A DNA stretch of 63,222 nt, counting the filler, from a bacterium (lineage in GTDB: Bacteria > JAMORN01), in NCBI GenBank assembly GCA_027063545.1. It is 12 parts of 12 records of this genome, joined end to end, with 100 filler letters (N's around TTAATTAATTAA, not from the genome) between each part and the next. Parts side by side here need not be neighbours in the genome. Positions count along the whole stretch, not along the records: positions 16,644 to 22,452 come from JAMORN010000171.1; 11 more parts are not named here. One strand, 5' to 3'. The position numbers and the translations under genes are program-made. Below are positions 4,718 to 60,860 of the stretch, piece by piece. The notes under the pieces were generated by a model. That model did no database searches. It was not told the origin of the DNA and was given only the letters and a program-made list of their open reading frames with translations. How positions within the stretch are numbered: position 1 is the first letter of the stretch; every line of letters begins with the position of its first letter.

Positions 4718-4817
4718 NNNNNNNNNNNNNNNNNNNNNNNNNNNNNNNNNNNNNNNNNNNNTTAATTAATTAANNNNNNNNNNNNNNNNNNNNNNNNNNN
4801 NNNNNNNNNNNNNNNNN
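4718..4817. other. Artificial contig spacer
   Basis: N44-TTAATTAATTAA-N44, stops in all six frames. Confidence 0.99.
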
Positions 4818-10631: not shown

Positions 10632-10731
10632 NNNNNNNNNNNNNNNNNNNNNNNNNNNNNNNNNNNNNNNNNNNNTTAATTAATTAANNNNNNNNNNNNN
10701 NNNNNNNNNNNNNNNNNNNNNNNNNNNNNNN
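10632..10731. other. Artificial contig spacer
   Basis: N44-TTAATTAATTAA-N44. Confidence 0.99.
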
Positions 10732-16543: not shown

Positions 16544-16643
16544 NNNNNNNNNNNNNNNNNNNNNNNNNNNNNNNNNNNNNNNNNNNNTTAATTAATTAAN
16601 NNNNNNNNNNNNNNNNNNNNNNNNNNNNNNNNNNNNNNNNNNN
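16544..16643. other. Artificial contig spacer
   Basis: N44-TTAATTAATTAA-N44. Confidence 0.99.
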
Positions 16644-16884
16644 GTATTTCAATAACTATAAAATTCTGTAAATACATATAAACAAAATATAAAAAATAAA
16701 CAAAATGTAAAACTAGAGAAACTATATTTATGGCTGTAAATCCTTTTTCATCTATCTCAATGGCCACATCCTCCAAATTTCTATAAAACTCATCTATTAA
16801 TTCATTTAAATCGTATCTAAAGCCTCTTGATACAACAACACCAGCCTGAAATAGAATTATAATAATTGTTATTATTGCGAGCAT
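16644..16884 (-). CDS. Membrane protein N-terminus, 3'-truncated, function unknown
   Basis: Two hydrophobic segments; start overlaps the stop of the PTS IIA gene. Confidence 0.5.
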
Positions 16885-17375
16885 AGTTCTATTAGTCTAT
16901 TATAAAAATCCTCTGATGATTCTGATTTTAAAAGATAATTTATATTATTCTCTTCCATAAATATAGATGTTATAAGTGGTAAAATTTCTGTTCTTTTTGT
17001 ACAATAAGCATCTTGATTATAGCCTATTAAAAATAAAAATTTTACCTCTCTATCATCAAATTCACTTATATAATCCTCTACGCCACCTTTTATAAAAACA
17101 GCAACTAAAATAATCTCTTTAGAATAGCTATAATCAAAAAATATACCATGAGGTATGGCTAGATAATTACCTATAGCTGTAATATTAGGAATCTCTTTTT
17201 CTTTTTTTAAAATTGATTCTTTTAAAGCTTCAATAGGTTTTATTTCTGGATATATATCCTCTATTTTATTAAAAACAAATTCGAATAAATGGTCCTTTTT
17301 TATAGTATCTTCAATATAAAATACTAAATCTTTATCTAAAAACTCTTTTAATGATTTTTTCTTATTCTCTTTCAT
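16872..17375 (-). CDS. PTS IIA domain protein (Ntr/fructose-mannitol type)
   Basis: ILKKEKE..TAIGNYLAIPHG phospho-His motif, DDREVKFLFLIG. Start taken at MKENKK, 2 nt after the Omp85 stop. Confidence 0.85.
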   Translation of the reverse strand: MKENKKKSLKEFLDKDLVFYIEDTIKKDHLFEFVFNKIEDIYPEIKPIEALKESILKKEKEIPNITAIGNYLAIPHGIFFDYSYSKEIILVAVFIKGGVEDYISEFDDREVKFLFLIGYNQDAYCTKRTEILPLITSIFMEENNINYLLKSESSEDFYNRLIELCSQ

Positions 17376-17377
17376 CC

Positions 17378-20300
17378 CTAAAACTCTCCTGATAAAGATA
17401 AATAAAACTTCCAATCACCATCAAAGCTATCTTTTCCTATATTTTTCAAATATATAGGCTTTGCCCAATCAAATTTTAAAATAAAATATGGGTATAAATT
17501 TATCCTATAACCTAATCCTGTACCTATATGATAATTATCTACAGACTTTAATTCATCATAATTATTATAACAAGCTGCTATATCTAAAAATATATCACCT
17601 TGAATATAACTCAACCTAAATCTAAAAGGAAAATAAAAATCTATGTTAGAAATAAAAGGGAATCTAAACTCCATATTTGTCATAAAAAAATTATGGGTCT
17701 TTAACTCAAAAATATCATAGCCTCTAAAAGGTACAACAACGTCAAAATTACTAAAAGCATCTAATGAATAGTCTAAATTTTCATATTTAGGTATACGAGA
17801 TGGATTTATTGTGAAATATTCTCCTCCTAAGTAATAATACTTAAAATTTTCACCCCTAATAGGCTTTGTATAACCTGATAGAAATCTTGTTGCCAGTGTA
17901 TAGCTTCTCTTAAATCTAAAATACTTTCTTAGATCTATATTCATTTCCCCTATACTATTTTTTAAATAAGCATCAGATATTGACTTTAAATTAATATCTA
18001 TATACGTCCCATTTACAGGTCCATATACATCATATATTCTATTATCTGTATTATAACCTGTTGATAAAGAAATAAAAGGCTTCTTTTTATAAGCTGCTAA
18101 ATCTTCAGTTTCTGTTACCATCGTATATATACCATAATAATCCTCAAAAGAAATATCAATCTTATGTCTAACAATAAGATAAGGATTAAATATAAAATAT
18201 AAAGAATTATAAACAGATAAAGGATATTTTATCCCTAGAAATGCCCAATTTTTAATATCATAATAATAGGTATATATAAAACTATCGGGAACCATAAAAT
18301 ATATAGGATATCTTCCTATACCCAAGTAATAATCTGGACGCTTAGATAAATACTGATAAAAAAATGAAAAATTCAGGTCTCTATCTATATCTTTTATTTC
18401 CATATTACTATTGAATGATAAATATATTCTATTATTTCCTAATTCATCGCTCACAATTATATTTCCTAAAAGAGTCACTCCTGTAAGAATCTGGTAGTAT
18501 AAAGCCATATATATAAAATCTATTGAATACTCGGGTTTATACTCACTTTTTTCGTATAATGTATCTGAAGAAGGTGCTACTAAAACATGAAGAGTATCTT
18601 TTTTGTTCTCTATATGAAGTTTTCTTTTTTCTTTTTCAAAATCTTTTATTAACTTTTCTATTTTCTTTGAAATATTTTTATTTGATTTTATTTTAGTTAT
18701 CTTATACTCTACTTTCTTATCTATAAAATCGGAAATTCCCTCTGCTTTAGGCAAACTATTGAATCTATACTTAAACAAAGAATCTATATCTTCTATATAT
18801 ACATCAAATGTAAATTCATTTAGATAGTTTAAAACAATCTTATTTTTTCCTATGGAAAAATTTCTTATATTTCTATATGAATTTGTAATATAATAAGATC
18901 TTTTTGTATTTAAATCTAGTACTTTAATATTTCCTATTCCTGAAGAATAATTTATAAACAATATTGTAGAATCATTATTATAAAAAACAGGGTTGTCTAT
19001 CTTATATTTTGAAGAATAAATAACCTCACTTTCCCCATTTGATAGATCGTATCTTATTAAAAGATAATGGGTTTTATAATTCCAAACATTGTCCATATTA
19101 TCAAAATATTCTTTTACAAAAACAATATATCTACCATCTGGTGAAAAACTAGGGGAATATTCTTTACTATAATCTACACCTATTTTAATTAAAGAATTCT
19201 TTGAATAATCATATATACCTATAAAAGGGCGATTCTTTTCATCTATACTTTCAAAAGCAATAGTATAATCATCCATTGGCGAAGGCTTAGGATTTTTTAA
19301 AACTTCTATATTTTTAAATCTTAATTTTTTTACTATTTTATTTTTCTTTACCGAATACACTATTATCTCATCTTTACCATTTATGGTAGCTGAATAATAT
19401 ATAGTATCTTTATATGGATTCCATGAAATCTTAGAATAAAATGGGTGAAAACTTTCATAGTTTTTTATAACATCTTGCTTTATCTTTTTTATTACCTTCT
19501 TCTGTTTTACATCATATATAAAAATTGCGTCATAATCATCTCTGTCTGTAAAATAAGCAATCAAAGAATCATTATGATTGATTGAAGGGTTTACATTATA
19601 TAATGTTAAATCTTTAATATGCTTTGTGATAGGTTTTCCATAAAAGTTTAAGTTATAGCTTTTATAATTAAACTTTGACCAGTACTTCTCTTTTAAATAT
19701 ATTTTCCAATCATCTACAGCATCCTCAAACTTCTCTCCAAAAACCTTCTTAAATGTGTCGTAAAATCTATTAGAATACCAGTCTAATGAGGATTTATTAT
19801 TACTTCCAAAAAAGAATTCTTTTATAAATAAAAATAATGTAGACTCAGAATACTTTTCAGATAAATAATATATAAAACTCTGTCCTAGTTTATACATCAT
19901 AAATCCAGAAGATGAACTTAAATCTATTTTATCTAAAATACCAGAAATAACTAATTCTCTTATATAAATATCCGTCTCATTATCCCATCCTAAAGAAGTA
20001 TACTCACATAACCCTTCATGAAACCATAATGGAAACATCCATAATATAGAAAATAGATTATATTTACCATATTTAGATGAAACCATATCATAAATAAAAG
20101 CATGGGTAAGCTCATGATGTAAAACATGTCTAAAATCGTAATAATCTCCACTAAATGGGACAACTATTCTATACTTTACACTCTCTGTAAAACCACCAAC
20201 CCCTTCTCCTATATATTGAAGTACAATGTTTGTCTGTTGAAATTCAAAAGGTGTAGCATAGATAATAACACTAAATTTTTGAGATGGATAATATCTAAAT

Positions 20301-20512
20301 CTGGTAACTAGGTTAGAATAAGCTCTTTCCAAGAAAAAAGCAGCTTTTTGAGCTAAAACATAACTATTATTGTAAAAAAATATTCTAAAATGCTCTGTTT
20401 CTATATAATACCAGTTAAGGTCTTTATATTGAACCTTATTATATCCCCAGCTTTGTATAGAAAAAGTTAATAAAAAAAGAAAAATAACAAAAAATCCTTT
20501 TATCTTTTTCAT
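17378..20512 (-). CDS. Outer-membrane protein: peptidase MA-like gluzincin domain + PD40/WD40 beta-propeller + Omp85/BamA-type barrel
   Basis: Signal peptide; ETEHFRIFFY; HHELTHAF..PLWFHEGLCEY; SPSFSPDGRYIVF; PFRGY loop-6 motif, MEFRFP, C-terminal FYLSLSGEF beta-signal. Confidence 0.85.
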   Translation of the reverse strand: MKKIKGFFVIFLFLLTFSIQSWGYNKVQYKDLNWYYIETEHFRIFFYNNSYVLAQKAAFFLERAYSNLVTRFRYYPSQKFSVIIYATPFEFQQTNIVLQYIGEGVGGFTESVKYRIVVPFSGDYYDFRHVLHHELTHAFIYDMVSSKYGKYNLFSILWMFPLWFHEGLCEYTSLGWDNETDIYIRELVISGILDKIDLSSSSGFMMYKLGQSFIYYLSEKYSESTLFLFIKEFFFGSNNKSSLDWYSNRFYDTFKKVFGEKFEDAVDDWKIYLKEKYWSKFNYKSYNLNFYGKPITKHIKDLTLYNVNPSINHNDSLIAYFTDRDDYDAIFIYDVKQKKVIKKIKQDVIKNYESFHPFYSKISWNPYKDTIYYSATINGKDEIIVYSVKKNKIVKKLRFKNIEVLKNPKPSPMDDYTIAFESIDEKNRPFIGIYDYSKNSLIKIGVDYSKEYSPSFSPDGRYIVFVKEYFDNMDNVWNYKTHYLLIRYDLSNGESEVIYSSKYKIDNPVFYNNDSTILFINYSSGIGNIKVLDLNTKRSYYITNSYRNIRNFSIGKNKIVLNYLNEFTFDVYIEDIDSLFKYRFNSLPKAEGISDFIDKKVEYKITKIKSNKNISKKIEKLIKDFEKEKRKLHIENKKDTLHVLVAPSSDTLYEKSEYKPEYSIDFIYMALYYQILTGVTLLGNIIVSDELGNNRIYLSFNSNMEIKDIDRDLNFSFFYQYLSKRPDYYLGIGRYPIYFMVPDSFIYTYYYDIKNWAFLGIKYPLSVYNSLYFIFNPYLIVRHKIDISFEDYYGIYTMVTETEDLAAYKKKPFISLSTGYNTDNRIYDVYGPVNGTYIDINLKSISDAYLKNSIGEMNIDLRKYFRFKRSYTLATRFLSGYTKPIRGENFKYYYLGGEYFTINPSRIPKYENLDYSLDAFSNFDVVVPFRGYDIFELKTHNFFMTNMEFRFPFISNIDFYFPFRFRLSYIQGDIFLDIAACYNNYDELKSVDNYHIGTGLGYRINLYPYFILKFDWAKPIYLKNIGKDSFDGDWKFYLSLSGEF

Positions 20513-21840
20513 ATCTTCTCTAATTTATATATATTAGAAATATCTTCATTTATTCCTTTTAAATTAAACTCTCCTATTTTTGAATATACAACATTTATAT
20601 TATTATTATCAAGAAATTCTTTTAAATCATCAGAAAAGGCAACTACTATATCATCTTTTATATAGTCTGACAATTCGTTCTTAAATATACTAAGAATTCT
20701 TTCTGCTTTATTTACAGCTACCCCAATAGCTGTATATGTTTTTCTCATCCCTTCTCCAAATACTCCAACACCTACTTCTCCATAAGTGATACTAAATATA
20801 AAATGAACATTATCTTTTACTATTAAAGAAGAAAATTCCTTCACTATAAGTGTCTGAAATTGATTTAAAATGTAGTGAATAAAATTTTCTAAATTTTTAT
20901 AGACTTCCTTTGGTGTTTTACTGTCCAGTTCAAATCTTACAATAAAGTTATCAGCAACAAATTTATCTAACACAGCACCATTATAGTACACAGACTCTTC
21001 TATTATATTATAATATAATCCCAAAAATTTGAGCCAATCCTCATCTTTTGTTTTATAGTAAAATTCAGAAAACTCTTTAAAGCATCCCATAACCACTATA
21101 CTCTTTTTCTTCTTAATCTCCTTCACATTAATAGATTCTTCAATTATTTTGCTATCTATTAACTCTCTATATATTTTATTAATTGTTATTAACGATTTTA
21201 TTCTCTCTATAGAATATTTTAGTCTTTCAGATATAATTTCATAGAAATTGCTATGCAAATAGTATAAAAGAAAAAATACATTATAAGAAGTAAATTTTAA
21301 AATCTCATCAGATAAATCAACCCTATATCCTTTGTAGTAAGAATATACAATTATTAAAATATAAAACGGATAAAATAGTAAATATTGAATTAAATAATTA
21401 CTATATGTTATAACTTTAACTCCTATAATTACTAAAAAATATATATAAAAAATTGGTGATTCCGTGCCCTTATCAAAAAACATCATTAAAGTAGGACCTA
21501 AATACATATAAATTACATCTATAATAAAAAATTTTTTAAAGAAATTAACATCATAATACTGTTCTTTAAGTTTAGGGATTACTAAATAGAAAACTCCTAT
21601 TGAATATATTAAATGAACAAATAATGAAAAAATAGCTCCATAAAAAAAAGTTTTTGTTTCAAATCCTAAAAAATAAGAAAAAATAGCTAATAAGAATAAA
21701 ACAATTATTCCAATATTTCTATATAGATAATAATAATAAGCTGTTCTATACCTAGTTTCTATATCATCTAAAACAATCTTTGTCTTTATATTTTCTAAAT
21801 CTGTAAGATTATAAAAAAAACGTTCTATTAACCTTGTCAT
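20509..21840 (-). CDS. 6-TM membrane class III adenylate/guanylate cyclase-family protein; first metal Asp replaced by Cys
   Basis: Six hydrophobic segments, then VVMGCFKEFS, DKFVADNF, GEVGVGVFG..YTAIGVAVNKAERI, FNLKGI. Confidence 0.85.
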   Translation of the reverse strand: MTRLIERFFYNLTDLENIKTKIVLDDIETRYRTAYYYYLYRNIGIIVLFLLAIFSYFLGFETKTFFYGAIFSLFVHLIYSIGVFYLVIPKLKEQYYDVNFFKKFFIIDVIYMYLGPTLMMFFDKGTESPIFYIYFLVIIGVKVITYSNYLIQYLLFYPFYILIIVYSYYKGYRVDLSDEILKFTSYNVFFLLYYLHSNFYEIISERLKYSIERIKSLITINKIYRELIDSKIIEESINVKEIKKKKSIVVMGCFKEFSEFYYKTKDEDWLKFLGLYYNIIEESVYYNGAVLDKFVADNFIVRFELDSKTPKEVYKNLENFIHYILNQFQTLIVKEFSSLIVKDNVHFIFSITYGEVGVGVFGEGMRKTYTAIGVAVNKAERILSIFKNELSDYIKDDIVVAFSDDLKEFLDNNNINVVYSKIGEFNLKGINEDISNIYKLEKI

Positions 21841-21844
21841 AACA

Positions 21845-22450
21845 TTAAACCTGTATTCTATATATTGTTAACTCTCTGTTTCTAACAACACCTACTTCTA
21901 TCTCATCTAATATCTTCACATTATCTATCTTAAACTCTTTTATTATATTTAAAACTTCCTTTGTAACAAGTATCACATTTTCATCATCATTAAATGTTTT
22001 CCCAAACTTTTCTATTATATGAGCTTCTTCTATTGATTCTCCCACACTAGAAAAAGTTTTTCTTCTTCCTTTACCCATAATTCCAATACTTACCTCTCCT
22101 ATTGTTATAACAAAAACTAATTTCAATAGATTCTTTGGAAAATATTTTTTAAATTCATCCATTATTTTATTATCAAGATCTCTTATTATATCTCTTATAG
22201 TATATATAGCATTTAAAACTTTAATTCTATTCTTTGTTCTTATATCTTCATGGGTATATCCATAGATTGCTAAAAAACCATCTCCTATAAATTTATCTAT
22301 TATTCCATTATACCTAGATACATTTCTAGAAACAATAGTATAAAAAGTGTTTAAAAAATTAAAAATTATATGATCTGGGGCATTATGTAAAAAATGAGTA
22401 GACCTTCTTATATCCCCTATCATTACAACTAGATGTTTAGTCTCTATTAA
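21845..22450 (-). CDS. Class III adenylate/guanylate cyclase domain, 5'-truncated; lacks the transition-state Asn/Arg
   Basis: Frame open to the contig end (LIETKHLVVMIGDIRRST), DKFIGDGFLAIYG, GEVSIGIMG..FSSVGESIEEAHIIE. Confidence 0.85.
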   Translation of the reverse strand, partial: LIETKHLVVMIGDIRRSTHFLHNAPDHIIFNFLNTFYTIVSRNVSRYNGIIDKFIGDGFLAIYGYTHEDIRTKNRIKVLNAIYTIRDIIRDLDNKIMDEFKKYFPKNLLKLVFVITIGEVSIGIMGKGRRKTFSSVGESIEEAHIIEKFGKTFNDDENVILVTKEVLNIIKEFKIDNVKILDEIEVGVVRNRELTIYRIQV

Positions 22451-22452
22451 TT

Positions 22453-22552
22453 NNNNNNNNNNNNNNNNNNNNNNNNNNNNNNNNNNNNNNNNNNNNTTAA
22501 TTAATTAANNNNNNNNNNNNNNNNNNNNNNNNNNNNNNNNNNNNNNNNNNNN
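22453..22552. other. Artificial contig spacer
   Basis: N44-TTAATTAATTAA-N44. Confidence 0.99.
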
Positions 22553-22554
22553 AC

Positions 22555-25500
22555 TGGATAGTTCTAAATAATTATGGGAATAATCCGGCAACCTCATCTA
22601 CCGTTGCATCAGCACCTGTTTCTTTTGTTATAAGAACAAACTCTCAACTTGTATCTCCTGTAAATTTATATCCAACTCAGGGAGATTCATTTAATTATGT
22701 TGATGATACTACAATAGTATTTAGATGGACAAATGGAGGTAAAGATGCTATAAAATATGAGTTATACATATTTGTTTATGATACAATAAATGGGGTAGAG
22801 GCTGCTATAAATGTTTGGAATACTGTAACAACTGATACATTTTTTATCCTAAATACACATGATGCTTTATATAAAGGAAAATTTTTATGGAAGGTTTATG
22901 CTGTAGATGACCAAGGTTTTAGTAAAGTTTCAGATCCTACATGGTTTTATTATAATGCTAAAATGGCTACTTTATCAATAAAAACTTATGGAATAATAAA
23001 TGATACAACACTTCCTCTTGCCTTTGTTAGTATAGATTTAATACCTTTATCAGGATCTAGTGATATTATTCCGATTGTAACAGATAATAATGGGGGATAT
23101 AAGAGGGTATTCTTATTAGGTAAATATAAGTTAGTGGCAAATAAAGATGGGTATAAGTCTGAGACCAAGTATGTAGATCTACTTAAAGAGGATTCTACTT
23201 ATTATGTTAGTTTTGTTTTAGAAAAAGCAGCAGGCCGTGTTATTGGTAAAGTTGTAAATAAAGAGGATTCATTACCAATATCTGAAGTAAATGTAATAGC
23301 AACAAATGTCAATGGAGAAAAGAGCGAAACTCAAACAGATAAATCTGGTTATTTTGTATTAGATATACCTGAAGAAGGCTCTTGGGTAATAAATATTGAG
23401 AAAACAGGATATATATCTCCAAGCCCAAGAAATATTACAATACAACAAGGTGATATTTTAGATTTAGGCTCTATACCTATAGAAAAGGCTCCTTATAGAA
23501 TTTATGGAATAATAAAGAATGAGGATGGTTATCCTATATCAAGAGCCACAATAGAGATTATTAATCTGATTACAAATGAAGTATATGATGAGGTTATAAC
23601 AGGCGATGATGGAACATATAGTTTTTATGTGCCTTATGGTAGTTGGAGGGTGTATGTAAATACTGCAGGTTTTATCCCAGAATATAAAGATATAGAGAAT
23701 CTTGGGTATGATAATGAGGTTAATTTTGTCCTTAAAGTAGGAGGTCTTATCAGTGGAGTTATATATAGAGTAAACTATAATGTAGAAACAGGCGAGTTTG
23801 ATCCACCTGCTCCTATTCAGAGAGAAGCAAATATAATTGCTTACAATATTGAAACTCAAGAAGAGTTTAAGACATCTCCAGATGTTTATGGTAAATATTC
23901 TTTAGGGGTAAGTTATGGTAGGTATATTTTAAAAGCAGAAGGTCCAAATTATATTGATTACATTTATCCAGACACAATAACTATTACTGAAACTAATAGA
24001 TCTTTTACCCAAAATATTTACTTAAGAAGTTATGGTGATATTGTATCTTATACTTTTGATACTTTAAATAATCCGATTGAAGGAGCGTATATTTCATCTT
24101 TTAAAGATAATAAATTTATTAAAGGTGTATATACAGATCAAGATGGGAAAGGTTTTTTAGAGGATTTAGAAGATGGTAGTTATACCATTTTTGCAGCAAA
24201 GAAGATGTATATTACTTCTATAAAGAAAACTATTACTATAGATTCAGGAGTTGTTGATAGTGTTTTACATTTTAATATAATAAGAGGTCCTTATAGATCT
24301 TTAAATGTTAAAGTATTGTATAATGGAAATGATTATACAGAAGGATTTTTAAACTTAATATCTCCTTATCCAGATAAAGCTATTCTTTTAGATAATAACT
24401 ATTATAATATAGATTCATTAACAACAGATATATATTATTTTAAATACATTCCTGAAAATTCAAATATTATAGGAATATATCAAGGAAGTTTTGATTTAAC
24501 ATCAACTACACAAGAGAATATTTTAGATACAATTTATTTACCCTTTACATGTTTATATGATGATACGTTAGCTTTATATAATGGAAATAGTATTATTTTT
24601 AAAATATATAATAGTAGTCCTTCTTTAAATATTACAGGTAAAGTATTTTATAGATATAAAGGAGAAGATGAGTATAAAGAACTTTCATTAAATAAAAATC
24701 CAACAGGTGATACTTTATATGCCACTTTAAATAATGTTATAACAGACAATCTATTAGAATATTATTATGAAATTGCCACTTCTGATGGAAATATATATTC
24801 AAATATTGACTATCCATACTATAGTTATATACCTAAAAAGATAAAATTGGAATATGCTAAATTTAAGCCAGCAGTGGTAGAACCTCCAGATAAAAAGATT
24901 GTATTAAAAGATTATCCTATATATTTAACAGTAGAAGGATATTATAGAGGTCAAGTTTTTTCAAACTTAATATCAAAAATAGAATGGTTTTCTTCAGATA
25001 CCTCAATTTTATCTATGAATAAATCTACAACTAGAGAAGGAGAGTTTATCACTTTATATCCTAAAAAGGTAGCCTCTAGTGTCTCTATAAGAGCTGTAGT
25101 TTATGGAACATCAGGTGAGAGGGATACACTTTTAGCTTATTTTAATATAATTGAAGGAGAAATTGATTCAGCATATATTTTAAGAAAAGATAAAAAAGTA
25201 GATGATAGAATGGTAGCAAATAATGAAGAGGCTATTTTTGTTGTTATGGGAAAAGTTAAAACCGATAGCGGAATTGTATATTTAGACCTTCCTGCTATAT
25301 GGAGTATTTACCCCAAATCAGGTGGAGAGATAGAAGCTGGATATTTAACTATAAAAAAGAATTTTGTTGGACAGATGAGGGTTATTGCAACAGTAAAAAA
25401 TTATAAAACATTATATTATAATGAGTCTCCATCAACTAGGTATGCAAATAGGTTTTTACATGTATATGCACCAATAGTTGAACCTGATACAGTATCTGAT

Positions 25501-26199
25501 TATAGAGGATTAACTATTATAGTAAATGATAGTAGTTTAATAAATTCAACAACAGATAAGTTCTTTTTGTCTTATACATTAATGAGCAATTATCAAAAGC
25601 AAGTAGATACAATGGAGGTTGTAAGTAATATCTATAATCTATATATGGAACAGAACAATATATTTAACAAACCTCTTACCTTAATCTATAAAATTCCAGA
25701 GGAATTAAGAAGTAGAAAGAATTTTATGTTAGGATACTATGTAGATTCTTTAATGAAATTTGTTTTTATTGAAAAATTAAAAAGAGTAAATGATTCTATT
25801 GTTGTAGGAAGCATAAAACATTTTTCTACTTATGCAATTTTTACAGAAAAAGAACCTGTATCAATAAAAAATGTTCAGTTTGTTCCTAATCCATTCTCTC
25901 CTTATGTATGGGCTAGGGATAATAATAGGGAAAGCCCGGGACTTGCTATAAAGTTCTATGCTTCAGTTCTTCATGATCCAGTTCCTAACATAAAGATTGA
26001 AATATATACAATAACAGGTGTTAAGGTGTGGGAAAAAGAGGTAGAAAATGCAGAAAACGGATATCAAACAGTATATTGGGATGGTAAAACATTAAATGGT
26101 AAAATGGCAAGAAATGGAAGATATATTGTAAAGATTAAAGTATGGGAAACAACAGGGGCAGAAGCAGTTTATAAAGGATTAGTAGTCCTAATTAAATAG
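22555..26199 (+). CDS. Large surface protein, 5'-truncated: tandem carboxypeptidase-regulatory/Cna-B-like beta-sandwich repeats with a C-terminal FlgD-Ig/T9SS-like sorting domain
   Basis: Frame open from 22555; repeats of G.V......PI..A.V....T.TD..G.Y/F; C-terminus FVPNPFSP..IEIYTITG..VYWDGKTLNGKMARNGRYIVKI..VVLIK. Confidence 0.8.
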   Translation, partial: WIVLNNYGNNPATSSTVASAPVSFVIRTNSQLVSPVNLYPTQGDSFNYVDDTTIVFRWTNGGKDAIKYELYIFVYDTINGVEAAINVWNTVTTDTFFILNTHDALYKGKFLWKVYAVDDQGFSKVSDPTWFYYNAKMATLSIKTYGIINDTTLPLAFVSIDLIPLSGSSDIIPIVTDNNGGYKRVFLLGKYKLVANKDGYKSETKYVDLLKEDSTYYVSFVLEKAAGRVIGKVVNKEDSLPISEVNVIATNVNGEKSETQTDKSGYFVLDIPEEGSWVINIEKTGYISPSPRNITIQQGDILDLGSIPIEKAPYRIYGIIKNEDGYPISRATIEIINLITNEVYDEVITGDDGTYSFYVPYGSWRVYVNTAGFIPEYKDIENLGYDNEVNFVLKVGGLISGVIYRVNYNVETGEFDPPAPIQREANIIAYNIETQEEFKTSPDVYGKYSLGVSYGRYILKAEGPNYIDYIYPDTITITETNRSFTQNIYLRSYGDIVSYTFDTLNNPIEGAYISSFKDNKFIKGVYTDQDGKGFLEDLEDGSYTIFAAKKMYITSIKKTITIDSGVVDSVLHFNIIRGPYRSLNVKVLYNGNDYTEGFLNLISPYPDKAILLDNNYYNIDSLTTDIYYFKYIPENSNIIGIYQGSFDLTSTTQENILDTIYLPFTCLYDDTLALYNGNSIIFKIYNSSPSLNITGKVFYRYKGEDEYKELSLNKNPTGDTLYATLNNVITDNLLEYYYEIATSDGNIYSNIDYPYYSYIPKKIKLEYAKFKPAVVEPPDKKIVLKDYPIYLTVEGYYRGQVFSNLISKIEWFSSDTSILSMNKSTTREGEFITLYPKKVASSVSIRAVVYGTSGERDTLLAYFNIIEGEIDSAYILRKDKKVDDRMVANNEEAIFVVMGKVKTDSGIVYLDLPAIWSIYPKSGGEIEAGYLTIKKNFVGQMRVIATVKNYKTLYYNESPSTRYANRFLHVYAPIVEPDTVSDYRGLTIIVNDSSLINSTTDKFFLSYTLMSNYQKQVDTMEVVSNIYNLYMEQNNIFNKPLTLIYKIPEELRSRKNFMLGYYVDSLMKFVFIEKLKRVNDSIVVGSIKHFSTYAIFTEKEPVSIKNVQFVPNPFSPYVWARDNNRESPGLAIKFYASVLHDPVPNIKIEIYTITGVKVWEKEVENAENGYQTVYWDGKTLNGKMARNGRYIVKIKVWETTGAEAVYKGLVVLIK

Positions 26200-60299: not shown

Positions 60300-60860
60300 G
60301 TTATGTATTGTGATATTAATAATTTTACTCGTTTTGCTTCTCTTAATACACCTGAATACGTTTTCTATAGGTTAAATAAATTTTATAGTGAAATATTACC
60401 TATTATAAGGGTTAATAAAGGAAAGATTGATAAATATATAGGAGATGCTATAATGGTGGTTTGGACGGATGAATTACTTCCTGAAGATCAAGCTTATTAT
60501 GCTTGTAAATCTGCTGTTGAATTAGTTGAATATATAAATCAAAGAAAAAAAGAGGGAGAGTATATATTTGATGTTAGTATAGGAATAAATACAGGAGAAG
60601 TTCTTATAGGAAGTGTTGGAGATTCTGAGTTTATGGATTTTACAATTATAGGAAATCCTGTAAACATAGCAGCAAAACTTGAGCCTATGTGTAAGAAATT
60701 TGATGCTTCAATATTGATTACAAAGGATGTTGTAGATTTAGTACATGCTAAGATAGATGCAAAATTTGTTTATCAAGATTTGAATATGGGCGTAGATATA
60801 TTTATTTTAAATGGTATATTTGATGAGGAAACATGCAGATGGATAACTATAAAAGATTAG
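60300..60860 (+). CDS. Class III adenylate/guanylate cyclase domain, 5'-truncated
   Basis: VMYCDINNFT, DKYIGDAIM, SIGINTGEV, DFTIIGNPVNIAAKLE. Confidence 0.92.
   Translation, partial: VMYCDINNFTRFASLNTPEYVFYRLNKFYSEILPIIRVNKGKIDKYIGDAIMVVWTDELLPEDQAYYACKSAVELVEYINQRKKEGEYIFDVSIGINTGEVLIGSVGDSEFMDFTIIGNPVNIAAKLEPMCKKFDASILITKDVVDLVHAKIDAKFVYQDLNMGVDIFILNGIFDEETCRWITIKD

Follow-up and report, generated by a model that had tools for sequence, protein, structure and literature searches.

Can two adjacent bacterial genes, neither of which encodes a complete set of class III cyclase catalytic residues, together specify a single adenylyl cyclase? The question is raised by two genes, here called A and B, in a 63,222-nucleotide stretch of DNA (hereafter the window) from an uncultured hydrothermal-vent bacterium, the draft genome of which (GCA_027063545.1) comprises 355 contigs and 1.57 Mb and is 82.7% complete. 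Both genes lie on the minus strand of contig C171 (5809 bp; window 16644-22452), as do all features of the pair given below. Gene B (20509..21840) encodes a protein of 443 amino acids (aa), with a six-helix membrane domain, a long linker helix and a cyclase domain resembling the second catalytic domain (C2) of mammalian adenylyl cyclases, as judged from the open reading frame (ORF) listing, homology and a structural model. Upstream of it, the 3' part of gene A (21845-22450, 201 codons plus the stop codon TAA at 21845-21847, in a frame open to the contig end at 22452) encodes a cyclase domain resembling the first mammalian domain (C1). The sequence between the A stop codon and the B ATG is a spacer of four nucleotides (nt), TGTT (21841..21844). 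We consider it on balance probable that A and B form an obligate heterodimeric adenylyl cyclase, in which heterodimerisation, the inactivity of homodimers and cyclic AMP (cAMP) as the product are what we infer.

Catalytic residues of A and B

Residues were assigned by three routes: phmmer searches against class III structures (3r5g, 1wc0 and 2w01), a MAFFT alignment with 17 cyclases drawn from metagenomes and other genomes, and a MAFFT alignment with 28 database homologues. The database was scanned with B using HMMER (1.84 billion representative proteins), giving 229 matches at E ≤ 1e-3; the 28 homologues were picked from the 148 other listed matches by their length and by an alignment reaching the membrane region, and a residue census was taken over the 151 domains in the best 150 of the 229 matches. 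Residue numbers for A follow the full-length protein described below. The six catalytic positions are D256, K296, D300, S377, E384 and I388 in A, and C253, K293, D297, T370, N377 and R381 in B. Asp, Lys, Asp, Thr, Asn and Arg occupy these positions in all 28 chosen homologues and in 138 of the 151 domains from the best 150 matches.

The departures of A and B from this pattern are complementary. A has kept the first metal-binding Asp (Asp256, 22412..22414) as well as the substrate Lys and second metal Asp (Lys296 to Asp300, 22280..22294), and has lost the substrate and transition-state half of the site, with Ser377 for the family Thr, Glu384 for Asn and Ile388 for Arg (22016..22051). In B, Cys253 (21082..21084) takes the place of the first metal-binding Asp, which is present in 48/48 homologues and, among the best 150 matches, in 146 of the 149 other domains. 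B has retained the substrate Lys and second metal Asp (Lys293 to Asp297, 20950..20964), with Ala for the family Gly at 296, and the adenine-specifying and transition-state residues Thr370, Asn377 and Arg381 (20698..20733). Two metal-binding Asp residues in one chain are therefore found in A (D256 and D300) and not in B (C253 and D297), and the transition-state Asn and Arg, both present in 48/48 homologues, are found in B (N377 and R381) and not in A (E384 and I388). The base-specifying positions are K293 and T370 in B, the chain expected to supply them to the shared site, and K296 and S377 in A; we take the Lys/Thr pair to be the class IIIb adenylyl type. The phosphate Arg is present in A (R373) and has also been kept in B (R366). 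D256, D300 and R373 of A combined with K293, T370, N377 and R381 of B make up a complete residue set, whereas neither chain alone has all six catalytic residues.

The same opposition extends beyond the active-site residues themselves. Twenty-seven positions are at least 85% conserved across the 48 homologues, 13 of them in the N-terminal half of the domain, where the phosphate loop and the metal-binding Asp residues lie, and 14 in the C-terminal half, the site of the Thr, Asn and Arg. In the N-terminal half, 6/13 positions deviate in B and 3/13 in A; in the C-terminal half, 1/14 deviate in B and 8/14 in A. Considering only positions at which one of the two proteins deviates, the table is [[5,2],[0,7]] (Fisher p = 0.021), a result that is supportive and not conclusive, as the counts are small and the split into halves was defined after the data had been seen. 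Sorting of losses into opposite half-sites is expected if each protein is constrained only on the face that it gives to one shared site, and would not be expected of general decay.

The preliminary description of this locus, made from the DNA alone, had proposed two co-oriented cyclase genes 4 nt apart with reciprocally degenerate active sites. ORF listing and sequence confirm the gene arrangement, and the codon positions given there for the A Asp (22412-14), the B Cys (21082-84), the B Asn (20710-12) and the B Arg (20698-700) are all right. Its residue assignments agree with all three alignment routes, and the complementary degeneration is borne out and reaches the further family-conserved positions described above.

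Full-length proteins, fold and predicted pairing

Only two matches of the HMMER scan with B had E ≤ 1e-10, namely B itself and a protein of 444 aa (P0002), residues 244-444 of which are identical to the window frame of A (201/201). This identity, together with a frame that ends at the contig edge, indicates that the A protein has 444 aa and is truncated only in this assembly. P0002, which is held in ENA only, and B are each on a single contig in the ENA assembly, of 12,126 bp in both cases. A Logan contig from a sequencing run (X1) covers window positions 19765-22452 and extends 661 nt further, part of the extension aligning as a paralogue to the region of B around the third transmembrane (TM) helix, TM3. 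Runs X1 and X2 are hydrothermal-vent metagenomes from two different studies, in which pieces of the locus are present at low depth (~2.5-6) and letter-identical; the X2 contig pieces over A and B thus show zero polymorphism. No RNA dataset is among the sequencing runs listed as containing the locus. Words of at least 21 nt from the C171 end occur nowhere else in the assembly. A cyclase fragment on contig C201 was considered as the lost part of A and rejected, as it is a 5'-truncated catalytic domain and not an N-terminus.

A and B are tandem paralogues. The window frames match with a BLASTP E of 9e-17, and full-length A and B share 35% identity across 386 aa (E 8e-63), the membrane domains being more alike (76/197 residues, 39%) than the catalytic domains (42/187, 22%). 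In phmmer searches of PDB sequences the match to CyaB of Pseudomonas aeruginosa (3r5g) had E 2.3e-6 for A and 9e-4 for B. B has no match to the cyclase family PF00211 (see below), so that its identity as a cyclase rests on its similarity to A, on the phmmer matches to PDB and on its fold. AlphaFold models built on 50-row alignments had a mean predicted local distance difference test score (pLDDT) of 84.3 for A and 83.4 for B. Each shows six membrane helices, the sixth of which continues into a long linker helix, followed by the catalytic domain; in B the membrane domain spans residues ~26-200 (21241..21765) and the cyclase domain residues 243-443 (20512..21114), and a hydropathy scan of B gave 5-6 membrane segments. 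Foldseek searches with the two models found 188 and 190 PDB chains at E ≤ 1e-3, and both catalytic domains have the class III fold. CyaB (3r5g) was matched with a target TM-score (TMt) of 0.84 for A and 0.85 for B at a root-mean-square deviation of 2.7, and CyaC (1wc3) with a TMt of 0.82. The full models align to Rv1625c of Mycobacterium tuberculosis (7yzk_A) over 426 columns for A and 412 for B, and both proteins have the layout of that enzyme, a single chain that joins a membrane domain of six TM helices (6TM) to a helical and a catalytic domain.

Conservation between A and B is strongest at B residues ~104-131 (window 21448-21531), corresponding to P0002 ~103-130, which include the end of TM3 and the TM3-TM4 loop with the region Asp/Gly-Thr-Glu-Ser-Pro-Ile-Phe. 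This loop would face outwards if the N-terminus is cytoplasmic and is a candidate for the place where the membrane domains bind a ligand.

The preliminary description had counted six TM segments in B, and the six membrane helices of the AlphaFold model agree. It had also treated the N-terminus of A as missing and asked whether it, too, held six. The loss is not a biological one, as A stops at a contig end and is complete in P0002, and the recovered part does have six predicted membrane helices. The mammalian-like 12-TM layout that it envisaged is accordingly present as two copies of 6TM plus cyclase, each modelled with six helices, and the C1-like gene precedes the C2-like one. Multimer modelling, which it had put forward for A:A, B:B and A:B, was carried out for A:B, on A201-444 with B201-443, and passes its controls. 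The complex scored 0.68 (0.69, 0.67 and 0.68 in separate runs) against 0.00 for the best of three controls, on a measure for which the benchmark mark was reached by 116/157 solved complexes and by 2/215 mismatched pairs. The runs share at least 90% of contacts, with a partner pLDDT of at least 78. The predicted interface involves both linker helices (~203-233), residues 296-300 and 367-388 of A, and residues 293-297 and 361-378 of B, and would bring the full residue set together across the dimer (A 296-300, B 361-378).

We propose that a 6TM class III adenylyl cyclase was duplicated and that each copy then retained one half of a shared active site. A would contribute metal-binding D256 and D300 and the phosphate Arg R373, and B the adenine-specifying pair K293/T370 and the transition-state pair N377/R381. 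The 4-nt spacer points to co-transcription and probably also to coupled translation of the two genes. Their products would meet through the TM6-linker helices and the catalytic domains to give a 12-helix, two-domain enzyme with one competent site for conversion of ATP to cAMP, built from the metal face of A and the substrate face of B. A second, degenerate pocket would be formed by C253/D297 of B and K296/S377/E384/I388 of A and could serve regulation. A homodimer of A is likely to be inactive; this is less certain for B, which has kept the second metal Asp.

Recurrence, alternative explanations and known cyclases

A few domains among the database matches have one-sided losses. The neighbourhoods of two such cyclase genes were examined, and an adjacent reciprocal partner was present in both (2/2). 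In a Spirochaetes metagenome-assembled genome (L024:4998-8428, plus strand), a gene with the residues DKDTGE (P0066, 546-aa open frame), which has a long non-cyclase N-terminal region, is followed by an adjacent HKDTNR gene (609-aa open frame); P0053 and P0094 are further members of the P0066 family with the same Asn/Arg loss. In a 2.4-Mb genome consisting of one contig (G027, L031:7424-11497, minus strand), an SKETNR gene (691 aa) lies upstream of an adjacent DKDTIE gene (666 aa). Like A and B, each pair consists of adjacent, co-oriented class III genes with one C1-like and one C2-like member. Both differ from A and B in their N-terminal domains and their lengths (546-691 aa) and are not orthologous to them (~20-30% identity, in the catalytic domain only), and the gene order of the G027 pair is the opposite one. 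At the remaining 24 fetched loci, 19 of 25 cyclase domains were canonical. One database match, P0088 (526 aa), has a complementary pair of cyclase domains fused in a single chain, the C2-like one (SKNTNR) preceding the other (DTDTDA). On the basis of these residue patterns, the reciprocal-pair design recurs independently in two unrelated bacteria. The two additional pairs suggest that it is probably widespread and under-described and not a curiosity of one genome.

The competing explanation that survives best, although we regard it as unlikely, is that A and B are non-catalytic or decaying paralogues, both catalytic domains being inactive and the proteins acting as membrane receptors or scaffolds without cAMP, or being pseudogenes in the making. 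It draws support from the match to PF00211, which is low for A (26.2 bits for the window frame and 23.5 for P0002, at a cut-off of 21.9) and absent for B at E < 1, compared with 87-103 bits in five homologues of similar architecture, both catalytic domains thus being far from the family norm. They have also diverged further than the membrane domains, as shown by the identities given above. Further losses are found outside the six catalytic positions: S260 of A replaces a Phe that is invariant in the family (48/48) and lies in the phosphate loop of the supposedly active face, I430 of B replaces a C-terminal Lys/Arg found in 22/28 homologues, and A is affected at V431. Orthologues that might reveal constraint on A or B were found in none of the collections searched. 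Among the 40 genomes given as relatives, all of which are kin at the level of domain only, the best non-self match had E 4.1e-7; in a word-indexed search of 5.8 billion proteins the sole match was B itself; a scan of JGI metagenomes with A returned only its own 5809-bp contig and distant cyclases; and the 90% clusters of A and B have one member each.

Most of these observations, like the post hoc split of the domain into halves, weigh against a heterodimeric enzyme as well. So do two others: the complex prediction may pass only because it echoes a likeness to, or a memory of, solved class III cyclase dimers, and B, in which only one Asp is gone and D297 and R366 are kept, might have residual activity as a homodimer. 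Set against decay, however, are the sorting of the losses by half-site in opposite directions, the presence in A and B combined of all six catalytic residues plus the phosphate Arg, the integrity of both reading frames (444 and 443 codons) in AT-rich surroundings of roughly 24-28% G+C, and the occurrence of the same reciprocal pairing in two unrelated genomes. In favour of the heterodimer we also count the paralogy of A and B, their 4-nt spacing, the better conservation of their membrane domains and the letter-identical pieces of the locus in a vent metagenome from a second study.

Somewhat less probable again is an arrangement in which B is the enzyme and A its modulator, such that B homodimers keep a residual or metal-dependent activity with Cys253, and heterodimers with A tune or inhibit it. 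B does have five of the six catalytic residues and R366, it departs from the family at a single conserved position in its C-terminal half, and Cys can in principle ligate metal. Against this, the first metal position is Asp in every one of the 48 homologues and in nearly all other domains of the best 150 matches, and five more deviations of B fall in the metal-binding half, as expected for an unused face. Replacement of a metal Asp by Ala in Rv1625c is also said to abolish activity, which is reportedly rescued by pairing with an Arg mutant; the A/B pair resembles a natural version of that complementation. A very improbable last alternative is that mis-joined contigs created the tandem layout or cut gene A, since, although the window strings draft contigs together and one of them ends within A, A and B lie within one contig, the independent Logan contig spans the pair and runs on into sequence paralogous to the B TM3 region, and the ENA assembly has both at full length on single 12,126-bp contigs.

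As an obligate heterodimer, the A/B pair would share much with mammalian adenylyl cyclases (AC1-9; TM1-C1-TM2-C2). Each combines a pair of six-helix membrane domains with a pair of class III catalytic domains, of which the first has the metal Asp residues but not the Asn/Arg, and the second has the Lys, a substrate residue, the Asn and the Arg but lacks a metal Asp. In both, one site is expected to be competent and the other degenerate, and the gene order A, B corresponds to C1, C2. In contrast to the single mammalian polypeptide, A and B are two genes separated by a stop codon and a 4-nt spacer. The substrate pair, Lys/Asp in mammalian enzymes, is Lys/Thr in the bacterial pair, the nearest structures being CyaB and CyaC. 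Mammalian C2 has lost both metal Asp residues, whereas B has lost only the first, and nothing in A or B gives evidence of regulation by G proteins or forskolin. The likeness is almost certainly convergent, the pair not being a member of the mammalian family.

Soluble guanylyl cyclase (alpha/beta) and fungal RGC/NeoR likewise consist of two gene products with one active and one degenerate site, but these are eukaryotic, have haem-NOB or rhodopsin sensor domains and produce cyclic GMP. The closest bacterial comparison is Rv1625c/Cya (7yzk), which shares with A and B the six TM helices, a helical domain continuous with TM6, a catalytic domain and a site that needs dimerisation; the Cya homodimer has two nucleotide sites, whereas neither A nor B has the full residue set. 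Published accounts report two occupied nucleotide sites in the 6TM homodimer Cya/Rv1625c (PMC9433096) and describe RGC/NeoR as a fungal two-gene class III heterodimer (PMC12264004). According to a 2022 review (PMC9552081), class III adenylyl cyclases of bacteria form homodimers, no bacterial example of a fused dimeric form is known, and the pseudo-heterodimer of animals originated in early eukaryotes through duplication and fusion. Searches of the open full-text literature found no account of a two-gene heterodimeric class III cyclase in bacteria, nor of adjacent pairs like those of L024 and G027; the text of Shenoy et al. 2004 (PMC2447327), in which the string 'heterodimeri' occurs twice, may bear on novelty.

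We give an even chance to a broader proposal, in which obligate two-gene heterodimers have arisen repeatedly among bacterial class III cyclases through duplication and reciprocal half-site loss, A/B is the closest free-standing analogue of the step from a bacterial 6TM homodimer to the fused 12TM animal enzyme, and the degenerate pocket and the paired, diverging membrane domains are regulatory inputs. A natural bacterial pair, with one half of the site in each protein, would show that the asymmetric one-site design needs neither fusion nor a eukaryotic setting. The pair would also offer a small, genetically separable system for asking, subunit by subunit, what the degenerate pocket and the two membrane domains do, both long-standing questions for animal cyclases.

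Neighbouring genes and other cyclases of the genome

Twelve draft contigs (C168-C173, C175-C179 and C201) make up the window, which is a pseudo-molecule with N44-TTAATTAATTAA-N44 linkers between them, at window positions 4718-4817, 10632-10731, 16544-16643, 22453-22552 and seven others. As the contigs are artificially linked, adjacency across any linker is not genuine. The joiner next to gene A (22453..22552) is non-genomic, and contig C172 beyond it is unrelated. C172 carries a very large open frame on the plus strand (window 22553-26199), which measures 1078 aa when read from its first ATG and stays open as far back as the start of the contig. Its product is repetitive and probably secreted, and has no relation to the cyclase pair.

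Within C171, the minus strand holds four tightly packed genes in the order A, B, a gene for a 1044-aa protein and a gene for a protein like EIIA-2 of the phosphotransferase system (PTS). The 1044-aa gene (17378-20512) has a start that overlaps the B stop by 4 nt; its product has a signal-peptide-like start, an HExxH motif and TolB/PD40-like propeller repeats, and gave zero PDB sequence matches at E ≤ 0.01. The PTS EIIA-2/PtsN-like gene (16872-17414, 180 aa) is downstream of B in the same tight operon. From this position it is conceivable that the EIIA-like protein regulates, or is otherwise linked to, the cyclase pair.

Two more class III cyclases are encoded elsewhere in the genome. The C201 domain occupies window 60300-60857 on the plus strand (G000:C201:1-558), has its 5' end cut by the contig start, matches PF00211 with 68 bits and has the residues D, K, D, T and N, with Lys where the transition-state Arg is expected. 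The other is outside the window (G000:C279:1796-3292, minus strand) and is a 499-aa open frame with about four hydrophobic segments, cut by the contig end; at the catalytic positions it has D, N, D, T, N and K, with Asn in place of the substrate Lys and Lys in place of the Arg. For a genome of ~1.6-1.9 Mb, four cyclase genes are many.

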